DNA from: a virus
Lineage: Duplodnaviria > Heunggongvirae > Uroviricota > Caudoviricetes
Virus record (IMG/VR): IMGVR_UViG_3300012156_000175
Length of the DNA: 64,000 nucleotides
Strand: one strand, 5' to 3'
In this document: piece after piece, positions 44,216 through 61,485 of the stretch
Numbering within the stretch: the stretch's first letter is position 1
Layout of the letters: each line of letters begins with the position of its first letter
Notes under the pieces: model-generated
Seen by the model: only the letters and a program-made list of their open reading frames with translations
Databases searched by the model: none
Told to the model about the DNA's origin: nothing
Program-made: the position numbers and the translations under genes

Positions 44216-46567
44216 ATGTTTGGTCAATCAGTTAAAAAGATGAATAAGATTGTTGATAAAATAATCTCTTATGAAAATACAATGAAATGTTTAACGGATA
44301 ATGCCCTTAAAGAGAAAACGACTGAATTCAAAAAAAGGATTCAATCTGGCGAAAGTTTAGAACAGTTACTTCCAGAGGCTTTTGCTGTAGTAAGAGAGAC
44401 TTCCCGAAGAGTTACAGGGATGGAACATTTTAGAGTACAACTCCTTGGAGGAATTGCTCTTCATAAAGGCTATATTGCTGAAATGAAAACAGGAGAAGGA
44501 AAAACATTAGTATCTACCTGCCCAGCATATCTAAATGCCTTGACTGGAAAAGGAGTATATATTGTCACGGTAAATGACTATTTAGCCAAAAGAGACTCAG
44601 AACTAATGGGCCAAATACATCGGTTCCTCGGATTAACAGTTGGAACTGTATTAAATGAAATGAATTCTATGCAGAGACAGGAAGCGTATAGTTGTGATAT
44701 CACTTATGTTACCAATAATGAATTGGGCTTTGACTATTTGCGAGATAATATGGCTCTTTCAAAAGAGCAGCAAGTATTAAGAGGAATTAATTATTGTATT
44801 ATTGATGAAATAGATTCGATCTTGATTGATGAGGCCAGAACACCTTTAATTATTTCTGGCCAAAGTGAACGTTCAACCAGTCTATATGTAGCGGCAGATT
44901 TTTTGGCAAAAAAAATGAAAAAAGGTGAATCGCTGGATTATAGGAAATCTGATTTTCTAACTGGTCAAGAAATTAAGGAAGCGGGAGAGTTTATTCTGGA
45001 AGAAAAAGAGAAAAACGTTCATTTTACGGGCAGAGGTATTAGCCAAATAGAAGATTTTTTTCATATTACGAATTTGTCAGAACCAGCGAATATAGATATT
45101 CAACATCATATGTATTTAGCATTAAAGGCTAATTATTTGATGCATAGAAATAAAGACTATGTAGTTAAAGGTGATGAGATTTTAATTGTTGATGAGTTCA
45201 CCGGCCGAACAATGCAAGGCCGAAGATATTCAGATGGATTACACCAGGCAATTGAAGCCAAAGAAAATGTTGATATAAAAAAAGAGTCAAAGACAATGGC
45301 CGCAATTACATTTCAAAATTTTTTTAATAAATTTGAGAAAAAATCAGGTATGACAGGTACTGCAAAAACAGAAGAAAAAGAATTTAAATCGACATATCAT
45401 ATGTCGGTAGTAGAAATACCGACATATAAGCCGGTAATCAGAAAAGATAATACAGATATGGTATATCAAACAAAGAAAGAAAAGTTTAATGCAGTGATAG
45501 AGGCTATTAAAGTTGCATATCAAAAAGGACAACCGGTTTTAGTGGGAACCGTTTCGATTAGAACCTCAGAGTTGCTTTCAAAAATGTTAAAGAAACGAAG
45601 CATTCCTCACAACGTTTTGAATGCAAAAAACGCAGAAGCAGAGGCATCTATTATTGAAGAAGCCGGAAAATATAAAGCTGTAACAATTGCAACTAACATG
45701 GCAGGGCGTGGTACAGATATCAAATTAGATGACATGTCCCGGAAAATTGGTGGATTAATTATTTTAGGTACAGAAAAACATGAATCAAGACGTATTGACA
45801 ATCAGCTCAGAGGTCGTGCCGGCCGACAAGGAGATCCGGGAGAATCATGTTTTTATGTTTCATTAGAAGATGATATAATGAAGTACTTTGGCTCTGATAA
45901 AACGAAACAGGTGTTTGAACAAAATGACGTTCAGCCAGGTGAAGCTATTCAACATAAACTATTAGCCAAGTATGTTGAAAAAGCACAAAAAATAATAGAA
46001 AGCAACAATTATGGAGTACGAGAGCAGCTACTTAATTTTGATAACACTAATAATGATCAAAGAGAAATTATTTATAAAGAAAGAAATGATATACTGCAGG
46101 ATGCTGATGTCAAAGAAACAATGTTAAATATGATCAAAGATACCATATTTGAGCTAAGCCAAAATTATGTACTTGAGGATGATGAAAATGCTACAGAAGA
46201 GTTTATCACTAAAGCACATGAATTTATTCCATTAGAACTTAATTTAGAAAAATGCAAGAACTTAAAAAGGCATATGTTATTAAAGTTTCTCTACAATAAA
46301 GTTGATGAGTTTTATCAAAGCTTTGAAAGTAGATTTGAAAGTAAAAACGAAATCCGGGAATTAGAAAGACGTATACTATTAAAAGTTATTGATATTAATT
46401 GGATGAACCATATTGATGATATGGATAAACTAAAAGAAGGCATCTCATTACAAGCATATGCTCAACATGACCCAGTAATTGAATACAAAATAGAAGCATA
46501 TAAAAAGTTTGAGGAAATGATTGCAAATATAAGGAAAATGACAGTCAAAACAATTTGTAACATATAG
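44216..46567 (+). CDS. secA: preprotein translocase ATPase SecA, short form lacking the C-terminal Zn tail (SecA2-like accessory SecA)
   Basis: Full SecA motor motifs (KTGEGKT, DEVDSILIDEARTPLIISG). Only 783 aa, with no CxxC C-terminal tail. Confidence 0.88.
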   Translation: MFGQSVKKMNKIVDKIISYENTMKCLTDNALKEKTTEFKKRIQSGESLEQLLPEAFAVVRETSRRVTGMEHFRVQLLGGIALHKGYIAEMKTGEGKTLVSTCPAYLNALTGKGVYIVTVNDYLAKRDSELMGQIHRFLGLTVGTVLNEMNSMQRQEAYSCDITYVTNNELGFDYLRDNMALSKEQQVLRGINYCIIDEIDSILIDEARTPLIISGQSERSTSLYVAADFLAKKMKKGESLDYRKSDFLTGQEIKEAGEFILEEKEKNVHFTGRGISQIEDFFHITNLSEPANIDIQHHMYLALKANYLMHRNKDYVVKGDEILIVDEFTGRTMQGRRYSDGLHQAIEAKENVDIKKESKTMAAITFQNFFNKFEKKSGMTGTAKTEEKEFKSTYHMSVVEIPTYKPVIRKDNTDMVYQTKKEKFNAVIEAIKVAYQKGQPVLVGTVSIRTSELLSKMLKKRSIPHNVLNAKNAEAEASIIEEAGKYKAVTIATNMAGRGTDIKLDDMSRKIGGLIILGTEKHESRRIDNQLRGRAGRQGDPGESCFYVSLEDDIMKYFGSDKTKQVFEQNDVQPGEAIQHKLLAKYVEKAQKIIESNNYGVREQLLNFDNTNNDQREIIYKERNDILQDADVKETMLNMIKDTIFELSQNYVLEDDENATEEFITKAHEFIPLELNLEKCKNLKRHMLLKFLYNKVDEFYQSFESRFESKNEIRELERRILLKVIDINWMNHIDDMDKLKEGISLQAYAQHDPVIEYKIEAYKKFEEMIANIRKMTVKTICNI

Positions 46568-54470: not shown

Positions 54471-54543
54471 GGCTTTGTAGGAGAATGGTTAATCCGTCCG
54501 GCTGTCGCCCGGAAGATTGTGGGTTCGAGTCCCATCAAAGTCG
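54471..54543 (+). tRNA. tRNA-Asp (GTC)
   Basis: Acceptor GGCTTTG/CAAAGTC (one G-U), anticodon loop CTGTCGC, T-arm GTGGG-TTCGAGT-CCCAT, discriminator G. The D-stem has one mismatch. Confidence 0.7.
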
Positions 54544-54547
54544 TTAA

Positions 54548-54619
54548 TCCCAGGTAGCTCAACGGTAGAGCATCTGGCTGTTAACCAGAGGGATGCAGGT
54601 TCGAGTCCTGCCCTTGGAG
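54548..54619 (+). tRNA. tRNA-Asn (GTT)
   Basis: U1:A72 start as in Firmicutes Asn. D-arm GCTC-AACGGTA-GAGC, anticodon loop CTGTTAA, T-arm GCAGG-TTCGAGT-CCTGC. C4:U69 mismatch in the acceptor. Confidence 0.7.
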
Positions 54620-54623
54620 CTTT

Positions 54624-54696
54624 GGATTGGTAGATCAGTTGGTAAAGCAGAGCGCTGAAAATTCTCGTGCATCTGATCCGATTCCAGTCCGACCCT
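54624..54696 (+). pseudogene. degenerate tRNA-Phe-like element (tRNA pseudogene)
   Basis: Starts GGATTGG-TA-GATC-AGTTGGTAAA like the intact Phe gene at 55257 and retains the CTGAAAA anticodon loop. The D-stem, anticodon stem and T-arm cannot be paired. Confidence 0.3.
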
Positions 54697-54768
54697 GTCC
54701 TCATAGTTCAATGGATAGAACATGGGTCTTCTAAACCTAAAATAAGAGTTCGATTCTCTTTGAGGACA
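54697..54768 (+). tRNA. tRNA-Arg (TCT)
   Basis: Perfect acceptor GTCCTCA/TGAGGAC, D-arm GTTC-AATGGATA-GAAC, anticodon loop CTTCTAA, T-arm AAGAG-TTCGATT-CTCTT. Confidence 0.8.
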
Positions 54769-54771
54769 TCT

Positions 54772-54847
54772 TGGGATGTAGTTCAGTTGGCAGAATGCCT
54801 GATTTGGTTTTATTGTGATGTTGTGGGTTTGAAATATGACATTCCAG
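54772..54847 (+). pseudogene. degenerate tRNA-like element (tRNA-Pro-like 5-prime half; the acceptor ends still pair, the anticodon and T arms are destroyed)
   Basis: TGGGATG-TA-GTTC-AGTTGGCA-GAAT-G-CCTGA-TTTGG matches the 5-prime half of tRNA-Pro(TGG) at 55099. The 3-prime end CATTCCA pairs with the 5-prime end. There is no valid anticodon stem or T stem. Confidence 0.3.
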
Positions 54848-54944
54848 ATTACATTACAACTATATCTGTAGATTATGGTAAAGAACACTGCATGGGAAGC
54901 ACTAGTTTAAGCTCAGACAGGAGTGTTTAGTAACAAATATTTTC

Positions 54945-55017
54945 GGGACCATAGTTCTAATGGGAGAACAGCTGCTTTGCAAGCAGACGGTTGAGGGTTC
55001 AAGTCCCTCTGGTTCCA
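54945..55017 (+). tRNA. tRNA-Ala (TGC)
   Basis: G3:U70 identity pair present. Anticodon loop TTTGCAA. T-arm GAGGG-TTCAAGT-CCCTC. Discriminator A. Confidence 0.8.
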
Positions 55018-55021
55018 CTTT

Positions 55022-55094
55022 GCCCGATTAGCTCAACTGGGAGAGTGCTTCCCTTACAAGGAAGAAGTTGCAGGTTCAAACCCTGCATCGGGTA
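55022..55094 (+). tRNA. tRNA-Val (TAC)
   Basis: Acceptor GCCCGAT/ATCGGGT, D-arm GCTC-AACTGGGA-GAGT, anticodon loop CTTACAA, T-arm GCAGG-TTCAAAC-CCTGC. Confidence 0.8.
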
Positions 55095-55098
55095 CTAA

Positions 55099-55173
55099 CG
55101 GAATGTAGGGTAATTGGTAACCCGCCTGATTTGGGATCAGGACATATTGCAGGTTCGAGACCTGTCATTCCGA
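55099..55173 (+). tRNA. tRNA-Pro (TGG), unusual 7-nt variable loop
   Basis: Perfect acceptor CGGAATG/CATTCCG, D-arm GGGT-AATTGGTA-ACCC, anticodon stem-loop CCTGA-TTTGGGA-TCAGG, variable ACATATT, T-arm GCAGG-TTCGAGA-CCTGT. Confidence 0.7.
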
Positions 55174-55178
55174 TGTTT

Positions 55179-55252
55179 AGTGGATTAGTTCAGTTGGTTA
55201 GAATGTCCGTCTGATAAGCGGGAGGTCACCAGTTCGACTCTGGTATCCACTA
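55179..55252 (+). tRNA. tRNA-Ile (GAT)
   Basis: Perfect acceptor AGTGGAT/ATCCACT, D-arm GTTC-AGTTGGTTA-GAAT, anticodon loop CTGATAA, T-arm ACCAG-TTCGACT-CTGGT. Confidence 0.8.
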
Positions 55253-55256
55253 TTAA

Positions 55257-55329
55257 GGATTGTAAGCTAATCTGGTGAAAGCACTGGACTGAAAATCCAG
55301 GGAGCCAGGATCGAAACCTGGACAATCCA
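55257..55329 (+). tRNA. tRNA-Phe (GAA), atypical T-loop (A at position 54)
   Basis: Perfect acceptor GGATTGT/ACAATCC, anticodon stem-loop CTGGA-CTGAAAA-TCCAG, T-arm CCAGG-ATCGAAA-CCTGG. The D-stem is only 3 bp. Confidence 0.7.
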
Positions 55330-55333
55330 TTAT

Positions 55334-55405
55334 GCAGATGTAGTTTAGTGGCTAAAACGTTACCTTGCCAAGGTGAAATTGAGGGTTCGATTCCCTTCAT
55401 TTGCT
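55334..55405 (+). tRNA. tRNA-Gly (GCC)
   Basis: Perfect acceptor GCAGATG/CATTTGC, D-arm GTTT-AGTGGCTA-AAAC, anticodon loop TTGCCAA, T-arm GAGGG-TTCGATT-CCCTT. Confidence 0.8.
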
Positions 55406-55408
55406 TAT

Positions 55409-55482
55409 ATCAGTATAGCTTAGTAGGTTAAAGCATCAGATTCATATCCTGAAGACCGCTGGTTCGATTCCAGCTACTGATA
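55409..55482 (+). tRNA. tRNA-Met/Ile2 (CAT), A31:C39 mismatch in the anticodon stem
   Basis: Perfect acceptor ATCAGTA/TACTGAT, D-arm GCTT-AGTAGGTTA-AAGC, anticodon loop TTCATAT, T-arm GCTGG-TTCGATT-CCAGC. The A1:U72 pair is not the initiator type. Confidence 0.7.
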
Positions 55483-55489
55483 CTTTTTA

Positions 55490-55561
55490 TGCAATTTAGT
55501 TAAATGGATAGAACAAAGGTTTCCTAAACTTTAAATATGGGTTCGATTCCCATAATTGCAA
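55490..55561 (+). tRNA. tRNA-Arg (CCT)
   Basis: Perfect acceptor TGCAATT/AATTGCA, anticodon stem-loop AAGGT-TTCCTAA-ACTTT, T-arm ATGGG-TTCGATT-CCCAT. Confidence 0.75.
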
Positions 55562-55563
55562 CT

Positions 55564-55635
55564 GTGGCCGTGGCTCAATGGTACAGCAGCGGATTGTGGA
55601 TCCGCCAATTGAGGGTTCAAATCCCTTCGGCCACC
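55564..55635 (+). tRNA. tRNA-His (GTG), no genomically encoded G-1
   Basis: Perfect acceptor GTGGCCG/CGGCCAC with discriminator C73. Anticodon stem-loop GCGGA-TTGTGGA-TCCGC. T-arm GAGGG-TTCAAAT-CCCTT. The base preceding position 1 is T. Confidence 0.7.
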
Positions 55636-57275: not shown

Positions 57276-58256
57276 ATGGAAAAAGAATTAAAAGAATTAG
57301 TAATTACATTTGAGAATTGTGAAGATATTGTAATTCCTAGAAATGCAATTGGAGAATTTTCAATTGATGGCATTCATACAATAGTAAAAAGAATCGCCAG
57401 CAATTCAATTAGTGAATATACGGTAGCGGATGAAATCATAATGGAAATATTTAAAGAAGGAAATCAAAAATATAGACCTTTTGGTGGTCTTGAAGAAAAT
57501 GAAACACTGACAAGGCTCTCGGAATATAAGGACATAACATCTATTACTGTAAAATTTACAGATCAAACAGAAGAAATCTTTTGGGTATGTTATGATGAAG
57601 GAGATAAAGAAGGTGTTTTAGGTGCTGAGAATATAAATGAAGATATTTATACTTCAGAATTAGGGAATATATATATCGTAATCTCCAATAAAGTGAAAAA
57701 GGTAATTGACTGTTTTGATTTAGAGCACATTAACAATAAAGACGCTATTGATTTTGAAAAAGACATGTATGGTATTGGTGTGGAAGAATCGGAAATAGTC
57801 AGTCTTTCTGATAACGAGCTTCCTGATCTTTACCGATATGTTTATTTATTCTTCCAAAATGATGATCAGACGTTAGCGGTAAGAGTAGAAGACCTTGACT
57901 CCGGATGGAAATGGATTTGTCAAGACGAAGATCTTAAAGGTAAAATTCCAGTTTTTTGGAAGTATCCAAACAAAAAAATAAATAGCTTTATAATGGAAAC
58001 TGAAAAAAATGGGAAAATGGATATAGAAGAAATAAAAAGAAAACATACTGTGCACGATGATTACTATTGGCACACAGAAAGATGGAGTGATGGAGATTTA
58101 GAGGCAGCATTGGAAAATGCAGAATTTCCAGTTACAGATGAAAATATATGTAAATTGCGAGATTCATGTCATGATATCTTTAAAGATAAATCTGAACGAA
58201 ATGAAGCTATTGCGATGATCGTATCTGAGGTTTTTGGCGAGAATGAAAATGTGTGA
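57276..58256 (+). CDS. hypothetical acidic protein (326 aa)
   Basis: RBS AAGGAGAAAATAT precedes the ATG. Confidence 0.5.
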   Translation: MEKELKELVITFENCEDIVIPRNAIGEFSIDGIHTIVKRIASNSISEYTVADEIIMEIFKEGNQKYRPFGGLEENETLTRLSEYKDITSITVKFTDQTEEIFWVCYDEGDKEGVLGAENINEDIYTSELGNIYIVISNKVKKVIDCFDLEHINNKDAIDFEKDMYGIGVEESEIVSLSDNELPDLYRYVYLFFQNDDQTLAVRVEDLDSGWKWICQDEDLKGKIPVFWKYPNKKINSFIMETEKNGKMDIEEIKRKHTVHDDYYWHTERWSDGDLEAALENAEFPVTDENICKLRDSCHDIFKDKSERNEAIAMIVSEVFGENENV

Positions 58257-58332: not shown

Positions 58333-58356
58333 AAAAGGCTGAATAGCCTTTTTTGT
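58333..58356 (+). terminator. rho-independent terminator (AAAAGGCTGAATAGCCTTTT)
   Basis: Hairpin plus T-run, immediately upstream of the omega-RNA region. Confidence 0.55.
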
Positions 58357-58379
58357 TTTTGTAAAAACAATCATAATAT

Positions 58380-58700
58380 ACATGACAATAAAGAAAGGTA
58401 ATATTAAATGTCAATAACTCACTGCCTCTAGAGGCGAGAGCTTGTAAAAGCTTGATTGACTAGTCTAAGCCTGAGGAAACTCTTTGGATTTTCTTCGGAC
58501 TCCGTTATTTAAATCATGACACTCGTGGATGTCGTCCTAATCCACGACCCTGTCATCTGTGATTAAACAGTCTTTAGAGTAGGGACAGTGTTGCAGATGT
58601 AAAAAGTTTAAATAACATTGACGAAGGACACCTAACCGGAGGAACATTCTGTTTCTTTGGCATTATTTATTCAGTTAAATCAGAAAGGAGTACCTATGGT
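58380..58700 (+). ncRNA. putative IscB omega-RNA (structured guide RNA scaffold overlapping the iscB 5-prime end)
   Basis: About 300 nt of non-coding, relatively GC-rich, hairpin-rich sequence (GCCTCTAGAGGC, GTGGATGTCGTCCTAATCCAC) lies directly upstream of iscB. IscB loci are known to encode their omega-RNA here. Boundaries are not determinable by eye. Confidence 0.45.
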
Positions 58701-59988
58701 ATATGTCATAAATATGACCGGACAGCCACTTATGCCTACCTCAAGGTACGGCAAAGTAAAGCACCTTCTTAAGGAAGGCAAAGCTGTTGTAGTAAACCGC
58801 TGTCCATTCACGATTAAGTTAACGTATGAGAGCACAACTCATACTCAGGAGGTAACCCTGGGAGTTGATGCCGGCTCCAAAACAATCGGGCTGTCGGCAA
58901 CGACTCGGAACAAGGAATTGTATTCCTCTGAAGTAGAACTCCGTACCGATATAGTGGATTTGTTATCCACCAGAAGAACACTTAGACGGAGTCGAAGAAA
59001 CCGTAAAACCAGATATCGCAAGCCCAGGTTTCTAAACAGAGTCAGGAGCAAGAACAAGGGCTGGCTGGCACCATCTTTAGAGAACAAAATCAACAGTCAC
59101 TTAAAGGTAATAGAGGGAGTACACAAACTGCTTCCGATTACAAAGATAATTGTTGAAGTGGCCTCTTTTGATATTCAAAAGATTAAGAATCCCGAAGCGT
59201 CAGGAACTGATTACCAGCAGGGTGATATGCTTGGTTTCTGGAACGTAAGGGAGTATGTATTACACAGGGACGGACATGTCTGCCAGCACTGTAAGGGCAA
59301 GTCAAAAGATAAGATACTGAATGTGCATCATATAGAGTCAAGGAAGAACGGCGGAAATGCACCAAACAATCTGATCACGCTTTGTGAAACCTGCCATAAC
59401 GACTATCATAAGGGCAGGATTGAACTCAAAATGAAGCGAGGAGTTTCCTTTCGGGATGCAGCGTTTATGGGAATCATGAGATGGGCTTTTTATGAGCGGA
59501 TTAAGCTCTTGTATCCAGACGTTTCCCTAACCTATAGATATATCACAAAGCACACCCGTATTAAGAATAACATCCCAAAGACCCATTGTGCAGATGCATA
59601 CTGCATAACGAGTAATGTTGAAGCAAACTCAACTTGTCGAGGTTCGAACCACATCGCAGATGTGGTAACAAAGAGACTTGGATTTTACTACTACCAGAAA
59701 AAGGTACGCTGCCATAACCGTCAGCTGCATAAGATGAATCCGAAGAAGGATATCCGCAAGTTAAATCAAGCACCTAAGTACGTATTTGGGTATCAATTGT
59801 TTGATAAGGTGAAATACAAGAACCAAGAGGCATTTATATTTGGACGCAGAAGTACGGGATATTTCGACATCCGTAAACGGGATGGAACAAAGGTTCATGC
59901 GGGTATCAATCAAAAAGAATTAAAGTTATTAGAAACCAGGAAATCTTACTTAATAGAAAGGAGGCCGGCGATTTCTCTCACTACCTAA
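58696..59988 (+). CDS. iscB: IscB RNA-guided endonuclease (IS200/IS605-associated OMEGA nuclease with PLMP, RuvC-I/II/III and HNH)
   Basis: N-terminal MVYVINMTGQPLMPTSRYGKVKHLLKEGKA (PLMP domain). RuvC-I LGVDAGSKTIGLSA. Arg-rich bridge RRTLRRSRRNRKTRYRKPRF. HNH CQHC…NVHHIESRKNGGNAPNNLITLCETCHNDYH. RuvC-III HCADAY. The AAAGGAG RBS places the start at 58696. Confidence 0.85.
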   Translation: MVYVINMTGQPLMPTSRYGKVKHLLKEGKAVVVNRCPFTIKLTYESTTHTQEVTLGVDAGSKTIGLSATTRNKELYSSEVELRTDIVDLLSTRRTLRRSRRNRKTRYRKPRFLNRVRSKNKGWLAPSLENKINSHLKVIEGVHKLLPITKIIVEVASFDIQKIKNPEASGTDYQQGDMLGFWNVREYVLHRDGHVCQHCKGKSKDKILNVHHIESRKNGGNAPNNLITLCETCHNDYHKGRIELKMKRGVSFRDAAFMGIMRWAFYERIKLLYPDVSLTYRYITKHTRIKNNIPKTHCADAYCITSNVEANSTCRGSNHIADVVTKRLGFYYYQKKVRCHNRQLHKMNPKKDIRKLNQAPKYVFGYQLFDKVKYKNQEAFIFGRRSTGYFDIRKRDGTKVHAGINQKELKLLETRKSYLIERRPAISLTT

Positions 59989-60017
59989 GAGGTGGGAGTA
60001 TCTTCGCCTAATTTTTG

Positions 60018-61343
60018 ATGATAACATTATTGAATAACAAAAGAACTAGAAAAAAAATACTAGTAATAATAACTTTTTTGGTTTTTGTTAGAATTGGAAG
60101 TCTTATACCAGTACCAGGAGTTAATACAGATTTTATGAAAAATCTTGTTTCCGGATCTGAATTTCAATTCATAAACACCATTATGGGTAATTCCTTGTCT
60201 CACATGTCACTGTTTGCACTAAGTATAAGCCCATATATTACAGCATCAATTATTATTCAACTTATGACTTTAGTTTTGCCTAGGATAGAAGATCTTAGCA
60301 GAGAAGGAAAGTCAGGCCAAGAAAAATTACAAAAGATAATTAACTATACTGGAATAACAATAGGTTTCATTCAATCCTTGTGCATGGCTGTTGGATTTGG
60401 AATGAAGGGTTTGTTTATTACATATTCCCTACAATCAGTGTTATTAGCAACGTGTGTGTGGACAATGGGATCTGCCATACTCATTATACTAAGTGAAAAA
60501 ATAACTAAGCTTGACATGGGTAATGGAGTTTCCTATGTGTTAATGCTTAATATATTATCGGCCCTGTCTACCGATGTGATTGTTGTATTTGAAAGATTAT
60601 GTATAAATAACACAATGTTCCAAATTGTAGTATGTATATCAATTGTTGTTTTTGCATTTGCTCTATTAGTAGCAGTTAGTGTATTCTTGAATGTATCTGA
60701 AAAACGAATAGCCATTAAATTCTCAAGAAAACGTGCCAATGAAGAAATTGTTGATTATCTACCCATCCCAATGAATATTTGTAATGTTATGCCAGTTATA
60801 TTCACTGGAAGTATTTTGGGATTACTATCACTATTATCAGTATTAACGAATAATAATATTTTGAGAACTATATCAACCTATTTAACTCAAACAAATTGGT
60901 TTCAACTACATAACTTACAATATACAATAGGTGTATTTGTGTATATCGCTTTAGTATTTTACTTTGCTCATTTCTATTTGGATGTAACTTTCAACTCTGA
61001 TGAAATAGCCTATCGATTAAAACAACAAGGTGCTACAATTCCGGGAATTCGGCCAGGTATTACAACCGCTGAATATCTAAAAGAAAACGCAAATAAAATA
61101 ATGATTTTTGGTAATATAATTGTATTAGCAATCGTATTAGGAACTGTTTTTGTTTGTAACATATTAAACATTGGAATCCTTAGTGTTGGTGGAACCTCAA
61201 TGCTAATAGTAACAAATGTTGTTATTGATAATTATAAAAAAATAAAAGTAACTGCTCAAAGTATAAAAAGCAGTAGTTATGTTCGTACTAATAAAAAACA
61301 ATCATCTTTGTTCAGAGTGAAAGGAGTCAGACATGCTAAATAA
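60018..61343 (+). CDS. secY: SecY-family translocon subunit outside the ribosomal-protein operon (SecY2-like accessory SecY)
   Basis: LIPVPGVN and the ISPYITASIIIQLM SecY signature, with ten predicted TM segments. It is flanked by iscB and clpP, not by rplO/adk. Confidence 0.75.
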   Translation: MITLLNNKRTRKKILVIITFLVFVRIGSLIPVPGVNTDFMKNLVSGSEFQFINTIMGNSLSHMSLFALSISPYITASIIIQLMTLVLPRIEDLSREGKSGQEKLQKIINYTGITIGFIQSLCMAVGFGMKGLFITYSLQSVLLATCVWTMGSAILIILSEKITKLDMGNGVSYVLMLNILSALSTDVIVVFERLCINNTMFQIVVCISIVVFAFALLVAVSVFLNVSEKRIAIKFSRKRANEEIVDYLPIPMNICNVMPVIFTGSILGLLSLLSVLTNNNILRTISTYLTQTNWFQLHNLQYTIGVFVYIALVFYFAHFYLDVTFNSDEIAYRLKQQGATIPGIRPGITTAEYLKENANKIMIFGNIIVLAIVLGTVFVCNILNIGILSVGGTSMLIVTNVVIDNYKKIKVTAQSIKSSSYVRTNKKQSSLFRVKGVRHAK

Positions 61344-61485
61344 CTATTATATTCCGGATAAGAAAAAAATGATAAAAACGACATTATTAGTCTGCTTAGT
61401 TATAATAGGAGTCTCTGTCTTTGTCTTAGGCGTTGATTCAATCATTCTTAACGGATTGAGTTATATCTTAACAGTTGCTAAATAA
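61333..61485 (+). CDS. small single-TM protein (50 aa) translationally coupled to the SecY-like gene
   Basis: RBS AAGGAGTCAGAC precedes the ATG. It overlaps the secY stop by 11 nt. Hydrophobic core LLVCLVIIGVSVFVLGV. Confidence 0.35.
   Translation: MLNNYYIPDKKKMIKTTLLVCLVIIGVSVFVLGVDSIILNGLSYILTVAK

Follow-up and report, generated by a model that had tools for sequence, protein, structure and literature searches.

Introduction

The closest described relatives of the locus treated here are the RNA-guided nuclease OgeuIscB with its omega-RNA (obligate mobile element-guided activity, or OMEGA, system; PDB 7UTN, 7XHT, 8CSZ), the ISGst IscB element of Geobacillus stearothermophilus studied by Meers et al. 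(bioRxiv 10.1101/2023.03.14.532601), the ISC transposons described by Kapitonov, Makarova and Koonin 2016 (PMC4810608) and the HEARO RNA family (Rfam RF02033). We compare these with an iscB locus in a DNA stretch of 64,000 nucleotides (IMG/VR record IMGVR_UViG_3300012156_000175), the whole of which is called the window in what follows; the features of the locus described below lie on its plus strand. The region 58410..60017 is very probably a non-autonomous insertion of the IS200/IS605 superfamily (ISC/IscB type), which carries iscB and an omega-RNA scaffold, has produced no target duplication, and lies at the junction of Shine-Dalgarno (SD) sequence and ATG of a secY-like gene in a Clostridia chromosome, where it would act as an RNA-guided nuclease in the manner proposed below.

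In OgeuIscB, catalysis is carried out by D61, E193, H340 and D343 of the RuvC domain and H247 of the HNH domain, the guide is about 14-17 nt long and the target-adjacent motif (TAM) is NNRR/NWRRNA (PMC9640706). The window IscB has the same domain order, from PLMP to the TAM-interacting (TI) region, and in both systems a 5′ guide and a scaffold of about 200-250 nt are encoded upstream of the open reading frame (ORF); also, the ATGA found in the window fits the OgeuIscB TAM. The two proteins differ in that the N-terminal region is about 45% identical and the remainder less so, and in length (430 aa in the window against 496 aa) because the REC-linker region of the window protein is shorter. The window protein further has a private loop insertion of 15 aa.

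The ISGst element, as presented in the accessible part of the text of Meers et al., is likewise a non-autonomous element of IS200/IS605 type that has the omega-RNA abutting one end and the guide outside, and it is oriented as its upstream gene, as is the element in the window. In both, the TnpA target (TTCAT in ISGst; ATCAT/TTCAT here) reads as the TAM does on the complementary strand. The host and the protein clade are different, and neither the placement between SD and start codon nor the SD-like motif at the 3′ end of iscB, both taken up below, is described in that part of the text. ISC transposons have a 5′-GTCA terminus and an N|ATGA target (PMC4810608). With these the window element shares the GTCA terminus, the ATGA target, the lack of a target-site duplication, the subterminal hairpins and the mostly missing TnpA, the difference being its origin from an uncultured Clostridia lineage. 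The HEARO model is matched over its full length; the window RNA differs in an enlarged loop of the helix at 58497-58526 and in an extra 3′ hairpin at 58636-58660.

Delimitation of the element

The boundaries were set from 136 related loci, taken from genomes and metagenomes, together with the uninterrupted syntenic loci of related species. Three copies in Tissierella creatinini resemble one another starting exactly at HEARO position 1 (GTCAAC...) and as far as about 50 nt beyond the iscB stop codon, and are unrelated outside these limits. Across the 136 related loci the 3′ side is built in a constant way, from an imperfect hairpin, a short A/T-rich spacer and ATGA, in that order. It may be noted that a first rule for the 3′ end, written as a regular expression, resolved 61 of 115 loci and was replaced by an nhmmer profile with a broader rule. 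The element so delimited is 1,608 bp long (58410..60017) and runs 29 nt beyond the iscB stop codon. Its outermost part on this side is the 9-nt spacer TAATTTTTG (60009..60017), with 60017 given as the last element base both by the empty-site comparison and by the conserved end of the relatives. The first-pass annotation had placed the locus at 58333-59988, which overlaps the element, but the initial part of that span (58333..58358) is host DNA, where a terminator scan finds the terminator-like hairpin (58333-58352) and T-run of the upstream gene for a 326-aa protein.

The empty-site comparison rests on orthologues of the SecY-family protein encoded downstream (56-57% identity, from related uncultured species), which lie in loci without IscB and with the same gene order as the window (LytR - x - SecY - SecE - ClpP - HPF - deaminase). 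The uninterrupted loci, reading '...ataaaagaaaggtgtaataaatt|ATGATTATA...', are colinear with the window joint 58409|60018, reading '...aataaagaaaggtaatattaaat|ATGATAACA...', with no gap and no duplication. The comparison of the element's left end with empty sites, by which the TAM was to be defined according to the first-pass annotation, has thus succeeded across species, through the SecY orthologues, whereas no empty site of the same species was found, as detailed further below.

Both ends carry a subterminal imperfect palindrome. At the omega-RNA end this is CTCACTGCCTCTAGAGGCGAGAG (58418..58440), which matches the hairpin core of the opposite end; at the iscB 3′ end (the left end, LE, in the TnpA convention) it spans 59967..60008, has GGCGA/TCGCC as its outer stem and holds the iscB stop codon in its loop. 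The latter hairpin is seen in RNA as well as DNA folds, and homologous hairpins are present in the relatives. The core shared by the two ends (CTCACTGCCTCTAGAGGCGAGAG and CTCACTACCTAAGAGGTGGGAG) is in direct orientation and is specific to the element, and in two related loci (L016 and L010) the two ends likewise share a core, each locus having its own and of other sequence. Since the fold energies of the end palindromes are not significant alone (z -1.5 and -0.8), the support for them comes from conservation. The GC content is about 42% within the element and about 30% outside. Judged by sequence, the GTCA terminus, the ATGA target, the end hairpins and the missing target duplication are hallmarks of IS200/IS605-type (ISC) elements, and with a predicted guide, a scaffold, a TAM, both ends and a cross-species empty site the element is a fully delimited natural example.

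Insertion between Shine-Dalgarno sequence and start codon

The host 5′ leader of the secY-like gene (58359..58409), which now runs into the element, is colinear with the uninterrupted secY leaders, the latter reading '...aaagaaaggtgtaataaatt|ATGATT' and the window '...aaagaaaggtaatattaaat|ATGATA'. An equivalent of the terminator-like hairpin that precedes this leader is present at the matching place in two of the uninterrupted loci (L060 and L063). The original SD of the secY-like gene, GAAAGG, is found at 58393-58398 inside the guide region. On the other side of the element lies the TAM, or TnpA target, ATGATA (60018..60023), which is host DNA and whose ATG is the start codon of the host SecY-family gene (60018..61343; Pfam SecY 1.8e-65). 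The N-terminus of the encoded protein aligns with its orthologues from residue 1. The insertion has split this gene from its own SD, the element being positioned exactly between SD and ATG, with the host 5′ untranslated region (5′UTR) as its predicted guide. An insertion between an acidic hypothetical gene and a SecY2-like gene had been noted in the first-pass annotation; the neighbours agree, the second being a SecY-family gene, but the position is more exact than merely between them.

A census of placement was made on 65 independent insertions of the clade for which both flanks were at hand, with 2,472 ATGA sites in the same host flanks as controls. In 46 of the 65 insertions (71%) the TAM ATG begins an ORF that is 60 codons long or longer, as against 21% of the controls. 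A core of the type GGAG/GAGG/AGGA is found in the guide flank, 4-12 nt ahead of the junction, in 25 of 65 (38%) versus 7.9%, and ORF start and SD core occur together in 21 of 65 (32%) versus 3.2%. Also, in 3 of 3 copies on RefSeq plasmids (Finegoldia magna, Cetobacterium somerae and Anoxybacillus amylolyticus) the next coding sequence (CDS) called by the Prokaryotic Genome Annotation Pipeline (PGAP) starts exactly on the TAM ATG. Placement at a host gene start is therefore common among the clade relatives and is not peculiar to the window. The TAM itself is ATGA in 85 of 85 callable relatives, with A (84%) or T (13%) at position 5; positions 1-4 of this logo are fixed by construction, as the TAM was taken to be whichever ATGA comes first beyond the hairpin motif, and in two loci (L013 and L016) the true boundary is the second ATGA. 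HEARO elements are reportedly found to integrate next to ATGA/GTGA.

In the accessible part of their text, Meers et al. (bioRxiv 10.1101/2023.03.14.532601) note an orientation bias and argue that insertion in transcribed sites aids omega-RNA production. Start codons are mentioned neither in that part nor in Kapitonov et al. (PMC4810608; 0 occurrences), and no paper describing start-codon placement was found in full-text literature searches, whose scope did not include Weinberg et al. 2009 and Altae-Tran et al. 2021. The coincidence of target, host start codon and host 5′UTR offers a simple explanation of how an element with its guide outside secures the transcription of that guide.

Omega-RNA scaffold and guide

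The scaffold (58410..58636) matches HEARO RF02033 at model positions 1-211 with a cmscan score of 136.6 bits (E 2.9e-28), the gathering score being 83, and this is the only HEARO match in an Rfam scan of the whole 64-kb window. The hairpin-rich sequence upstream of iscB had been taken for omega-RNA in the first-pass annotation, with a covariance-model search as the suggested check, and the full-length match bears this out. HEARO was found at the matching position relative to iscB in 20 of 20 related loci tested. An RNAalifold analysis of 25 related RNAs gave 43 consensus pairs, of which 33 have both-side compensatory changes in at least one sequence, and the window copy conforms to this consensus fold. 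Beyond the Rfam model the terminator scan detects an extra terminator-like hairpin (58636..58660), which probably forms the 3′ terminal stem of the omega-RNA. In a subset of the relatives, namely those with a long spacer ahead of the ATG, the equivalent place is taken by a hairpin whose sequence differs. Hairpins 3′ of the model in the window and in relatives agree with the remark of Meers et al. that the RF02033 model is without the downstream structure.

The predicted guide is AAAGGTAATATTAAAT (58394..58409), about 16 nt of host DNA directly 5′ of the element; its assignment is based on related copies diverging exactly 5′ of HEARO position 1. No further match to AAAGGTAATATTAAAT with up to 2 mismatches was found in the window. 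As the guide is host 5′UTR and the element lies inside a host transcription unit, we considered whether IscB has been domesticated, its guide serving to bind the secY leader and to regulate the host gene like the TnpB-derived transcription factors, in place of a nuclease role. Yet none of the nuclease residues has been lost, and both transposon ends remain intact. Also, the guide match at the element's own locus precedes GTCAAT, which is no TAM, and therefore the ribonucleoprotein (RNP) should not bind there, while the orthologous loci of related species that lack the element argue against a conserved host function. We regard domestication as highly improbable.

Two minor observations concern omega-RNA in the related loci. 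In three of these (L073 near 646, L088 near 1054 and L116 near 32) the initial portion of the omega-RNA is matched once more, incompletely, a few hundred bases 5′ of the complete one; such matches may be remnants of earlier or nested insertions. On the Finegoldia magna plasmid pFMC (L144, 1010-1234), a CDS annotated in RefSeq as 'hypothetical protein' overlaps the 5′ part of the omega-RNA of iscB, and is probably an annotation artefact over the non-coding RNA.

IscB protein

The iscB CDS (58696..59988) is an open frame of 430 codons encoding 430 aa, and its SD, AAAGGAG (58684-58690), lies 5 nt ahead of the ATG. The domain order is PLMP, RuvC-I (D58), bridge helix, RuvC-II (E154), HNH (H212), RuvC-III (H297, D300) and a C-terminal TAM-interacting region. 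Pfam matches are obtained to RRXRR (PF14239; aa 2-176, 4.5e-65) and to HNH (aa 196-239, 2.6e-08). The PLMP motif is at aa 11-14, D58 is part of the RuvC-I motif GVDAGSK, the Arg-rich bridge helix RRTLRRSRRNRKTRYRKPRF covers aa 93-112, and the HNH domain shows C196xxC199, H211 H212, N225 and C230xxC233H, with the CxxC...CxxCH pattern conserved. The full IscB motif set listed in the first-pass annotation (PLMP, RuvC-I, bridge helix, HNH and RuvC-III) is thus all present. The HNH domain with its catalytic His within RuvC tells the protein apart from IsrB.

A sequence search of the PDB gave the OgeuIscB entries 7utn, 7xht and 8csz as best matches (about 1e-45). On aligning the two proteins, D58, E154, H297, D300 and H212 correspond to the five catalytic residues D61, E193, H340, D343 and H247 of OgeuIscB, and all are invariant in the clade alignments; the alignment check put forward in the first-pass annotation therefore reveals no substituted catalytic residue. 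The AlphaFold2 model is of moderate confidence (predicted local distance difference test, pLDDT, 73; predicted template modelling score, pTM, 0.69), and a Foldseek search with it returned IscB-omega-RNA complexes as the top PDB matches, namely 8csz_D (E 2e-27, TM 0.54), 9liq, 7utn and 7xht. Since the sequence alignment with OgeuIscB fades after about aa 343, homology of the TI region is based on the clade alignment and the fold match, aa 330-424 being conserved in the 119 close homologues and forming beta strands in the model.

The family is very abundant, with more than 8,000 homologues of IscB at E<1e-30, of which the nearest non-self ones are 68-70% identical and the closer relatives carry the RefSeq label 'RNA-guided endonuclease IscB'; hence we place the element as a further member of a known family. 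Lengths in the clade range from 408 to 430 aa. The protein had earlier been called a small orthologue of 430 aa, of which the length is correct while the size is typical or slightly long for the clade, and includes the private 15 aa. These are encoded by an in-frame insertion of 45 nt, NSTCRGSNHIADVVT (59626..59670), which adds aa 311-325 after the RuvC-III helix, forms a low-confidence loop in the AlphaFold2 model and is present in 0 of the 119 closest homologues. The insertion holds a perfect 7-bp hairpin (ccacatc-gca-gatgtgg) and the palindrome GGTTCGAACC. A search of the 64-kb window for a second copy gave no match, and an origin of the insertion as a duplicate of other window sequence was rejected on this ground. 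At the 138 columns with at least 95% conservation among the 119 close homologues, IscB departs from the consensus in 4 (I269, R281, I293 and R395), where single homologues do so in 2 columns (median) and in 6 at most. It is within the range of its homologues, and so shows no sign of decay. From its sequence the protein would be a routine and apparently intact orthologue, adding one more member to a very large known family. The window locus could be used directly to test a compact IscB of 430 aa with an ATGA(W) TAM.

Proposed mechanism and mobility

The mechanism that we propose is modelled on the Geobacillus IscB, as given by Meers et al. (bioRxiv 10.1101/2023.03.14.532601). Transcription from the secY leader, or read-through from upstream, would enter the element; as the guide is outside the element, transcription must start in host DNA. 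About 16 nt at the 5′ end of such a transcript (58394-58409) would be of host origin and the next 230-250 nt would be the HEARO scaffold, for which fold and conservation were given above. By its family membership, and by analogy with the solved OgeuIscB complexes, IscB would bind this omega-RNA. The RNP would then recognise the 16-nt guide match directly before ATGA(T/A), an arrangement that exists only at an uninterrupted site or just after excision, and both strands would be cut by means of RuvC (D58, E154, H297, D300) and HNH (H212), an activity suggested by the conserved residues. The occupied site would be immune because the element separates the guide match from the TAM. The break would be repaired from a sister copy bearing the element, by which the element is restored or spread, and excision and transposition would depend on a Y1 TnpA provided in trans.

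The 64-kb window yielded no Y1 TnpA (tblastn best E 0.09) when searched with IS608 and IS200 TnpA sequences, queries that did detect TnpA-like ORFs in two related loci (L010 and L085), which served as positive controls. These two ORFs (L010, 429-791; L085, 2437-2826) are the only Y1 TnpA-like ones among about 140 loci, and that of L010 (Tissierella creatinini) lies about 2 kb upstream of the IscB element. According to Meers et al. (bioRxiv 10.1101/2023.03.14.532601) about 1.5% of iscB genes are next to tnpA, and so a missing TnpA in cis is expected for non-autonomous members. The first-pass annotation had called the nuclease standalone, with no adjacent TnpA, which agrees with there being none in 64 kb, and standing alone is the rule for iscB. 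Copies with divergent flanks are found in relatives, three in Tissierella creatinini, two on one contig of a Clostridia metagenome-assembled genome, and others, while the window's own element is seen as a single copy in 64 kb. When IscB and the proteins of the upstream gene and the SecY-family gene were looked up by exact sequence, nothing came back beyond the source contig (ENA ERZ27241801 k141_75841) and one similar place, with no same-species empty site among them. Also, metagenome contigs scanned for exact DNA matches to the empty joint as predicted (GACAATAAAGAAAGG N0-30 GATAACATTATTGAATAAC) gave nothing.

Several of these results weigh against an element that is active as proposed. The missing TnpA and the single copy mean that it may be currently immobile, and a same-species allele of the empty site was not found. 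The supply of the guide transcript is uncertain because the guide is preceded by the terminator-like hairpin at 58333-58352 and by a promoter-like sequence that is weak (TTGTTT-15-TAATAT, 58353-58379; read by eye and not called by the scan). As the promoter scan gave 6 matches against 7.2 expected in shuffled sequence, no promoter is claimed. Lastly, either the private 15-aa insertion or G281R, which replaces a Gly present in 119 of 119 homologues, could impair IscB. The same element may be read as a stranded and possibly inactive relic, inserted once and unable to move for want of a cognate TnpA, with IscB impaired by these two changes, and kept only because its precise removal is rare. A fully open ORF with all five catalytic residues conserved argues against a relic, as do a number of departures from conserved columns that is within the homologue range, an omega-RNA that retains its covarying helices and scores well above threshold, and intact end hairpins; moreover, the insertion is in frame and, in the structural model, would lie in a surface loop. 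A relic therefore seems to us unlikely, and the insertion with an RNA-guided nuclease that acts as proposed is retained as the preferred reading.

SD-like motif and end hairpin as a possible replacement ribosome-binding site

An insertion between SD and ATG is expected to silence the host gene unless the translation signals are replaced. The sequence GAAAGGAGG (59956..59964), which encodes the final conserved residues of IscB, E421-R422-R423, resembles a consensus SD; GAGCGTCGT is an example of its synonymous recoding. In most relatives the ERR codons are GAAAGGAG[GA], which is also SD-like. The first Arg of ERR is encoded by AGG in 56 of 64 Arg codons, compared with 19% AGG among all Arg codons of the same genes, and the motif is kept in two loci where it is out of the reading frame (L005 and L054). 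From this motif to the host ATG the linear distance is 34-87 nt, with the end hairpin folded between. When only unpaired nucleotides are counted, 92% of 72 distinct copies have 5-14 nt between motif and ATG (median 10) as against 52% of shuffles, the count in the window being 2 + 9 = 11 nt. Split ribosome-binding sites are known from genes 38 and 25 of phage T4, in which the folding of a hairpin places a remote SD beside the AUG. The order of an SD, a stable hairpin, a short spacer and an AUG with about 10 unpaired nt would be the same here, the likeness being one of arrangement alone. In some relatives (L025, L044, L064 and L133/L136) the iscB frame extends across the entire end hairpin and is closed by the TGA within the TAM ATGA; the stop codon is therefore borrowed from host DNA and overlaps the host start codon, which is a classic coupling arrangement.

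These features suggest an element adapted to the translation-initiation region of its host, with GAAAGGAGG and the end hairpin serving as a replacement ribosome-binding site (RBS), or with termination-reinitiation from iscB, or both, such that start-codon insertions are tolerated and transcribed from the host promoter. We take this to be a real possibility that falls somewhat short of being probable. It would fit the enrichment of ORF starts and SD cores in the census and the PGAP starts on the TAM ATG, and equally the AGG bias, the persistence of the motif where it is non-coding, the spacing in unpaired nucleotides and the ATGA stops. However, the evidence is computational throughout. TnpA requires the hairpin in any event, and requires it close to the cleavage site, and so the geometry may simply follow from this; the AGG bias could stem from some other constraint on the nucleic acid, such as pairing with CCTCC in the hairpin arm; and selection for transcription of an outside guide, already proposed by Meers et al., could be enough to explain the enrichment at gene starts. 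Also, one subfamily (L037/L038) is without the ERR motif, and about 29% of the insertions are away from recognisable gene starts. Extending the replacement RBS to the clade, we suggest tentatively, and with some doubt, that the ATGA-targeting IscB elements may be specialised residents of translation-initiation regions, which would insert between SD and ATG, have their guide transcribed by the host, hold the start codon in the TAM and compensate the host with a portable RBS made of a synonymously constrained GAAAGGAGG and the end hairpin, some of them with an ATGA stop/start overlap; the window would then be one example. If true, a portable RBS would also explain how the element avoids silencing the gene on which it lands.

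Host and genomic context

The window belongs to a metagenome contig of 152 kb and is a chromosomal stretch with genes for RNase J, LigA, PcrA/UvrD, SecA, MgsA, NAPRTase, ClpP and HPF; a prophage or plasmid context was rejected on these housekeeping genes. The nearest named relatives of SecA are from Lachnospiraceae at about 60% identity, from which we take the host to be an uncultured low-GC member of the Clostridia. Thirteen tRNA genes (54471-55635), on the plus strand, lie directly upstream of the LytR_cpsA_psr gene. The upstream neighbour of the element encodes the acidic 326-aa protein (57276-58256), which has no Pfam match. The gene found between LytR and secY depends on the lineage, being that for the acidic protein in the window and one for an EAL-domain protein in related species (L063, 4258-4899). 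In two of the related loci (L060, 2961-4892, and L061), a fragmentary TnpB (Pfam Cas12f1-like_TNB, 119 aa) is located just upstream of the orthologous secY-like gene and adjoins a truncated EAL-domain gene (88 aa versus 213 aa in L063). This neighbourhood has therefore also been hit, in another lineage, by an OMEGA element of a second kind.

Downstream of the element, the SecY-family gene is followed by a SecE-like gene of 50 aa (61333..61485; Pfam SecE 3.9e-07). The pair (60018-61485) is outside any ribosomal-protein operon, with SecA (44216-46567) 14 kb upstream, and the SecY-family protein is only 35-38% identical to canonical Clostridia SecY; it may be either the sole SecY of the cell or part of an accessory pair. 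By these comparisons the secY-like gene is predicted to encode a SecY-family paralogue, with the SecE-like gene next to it.

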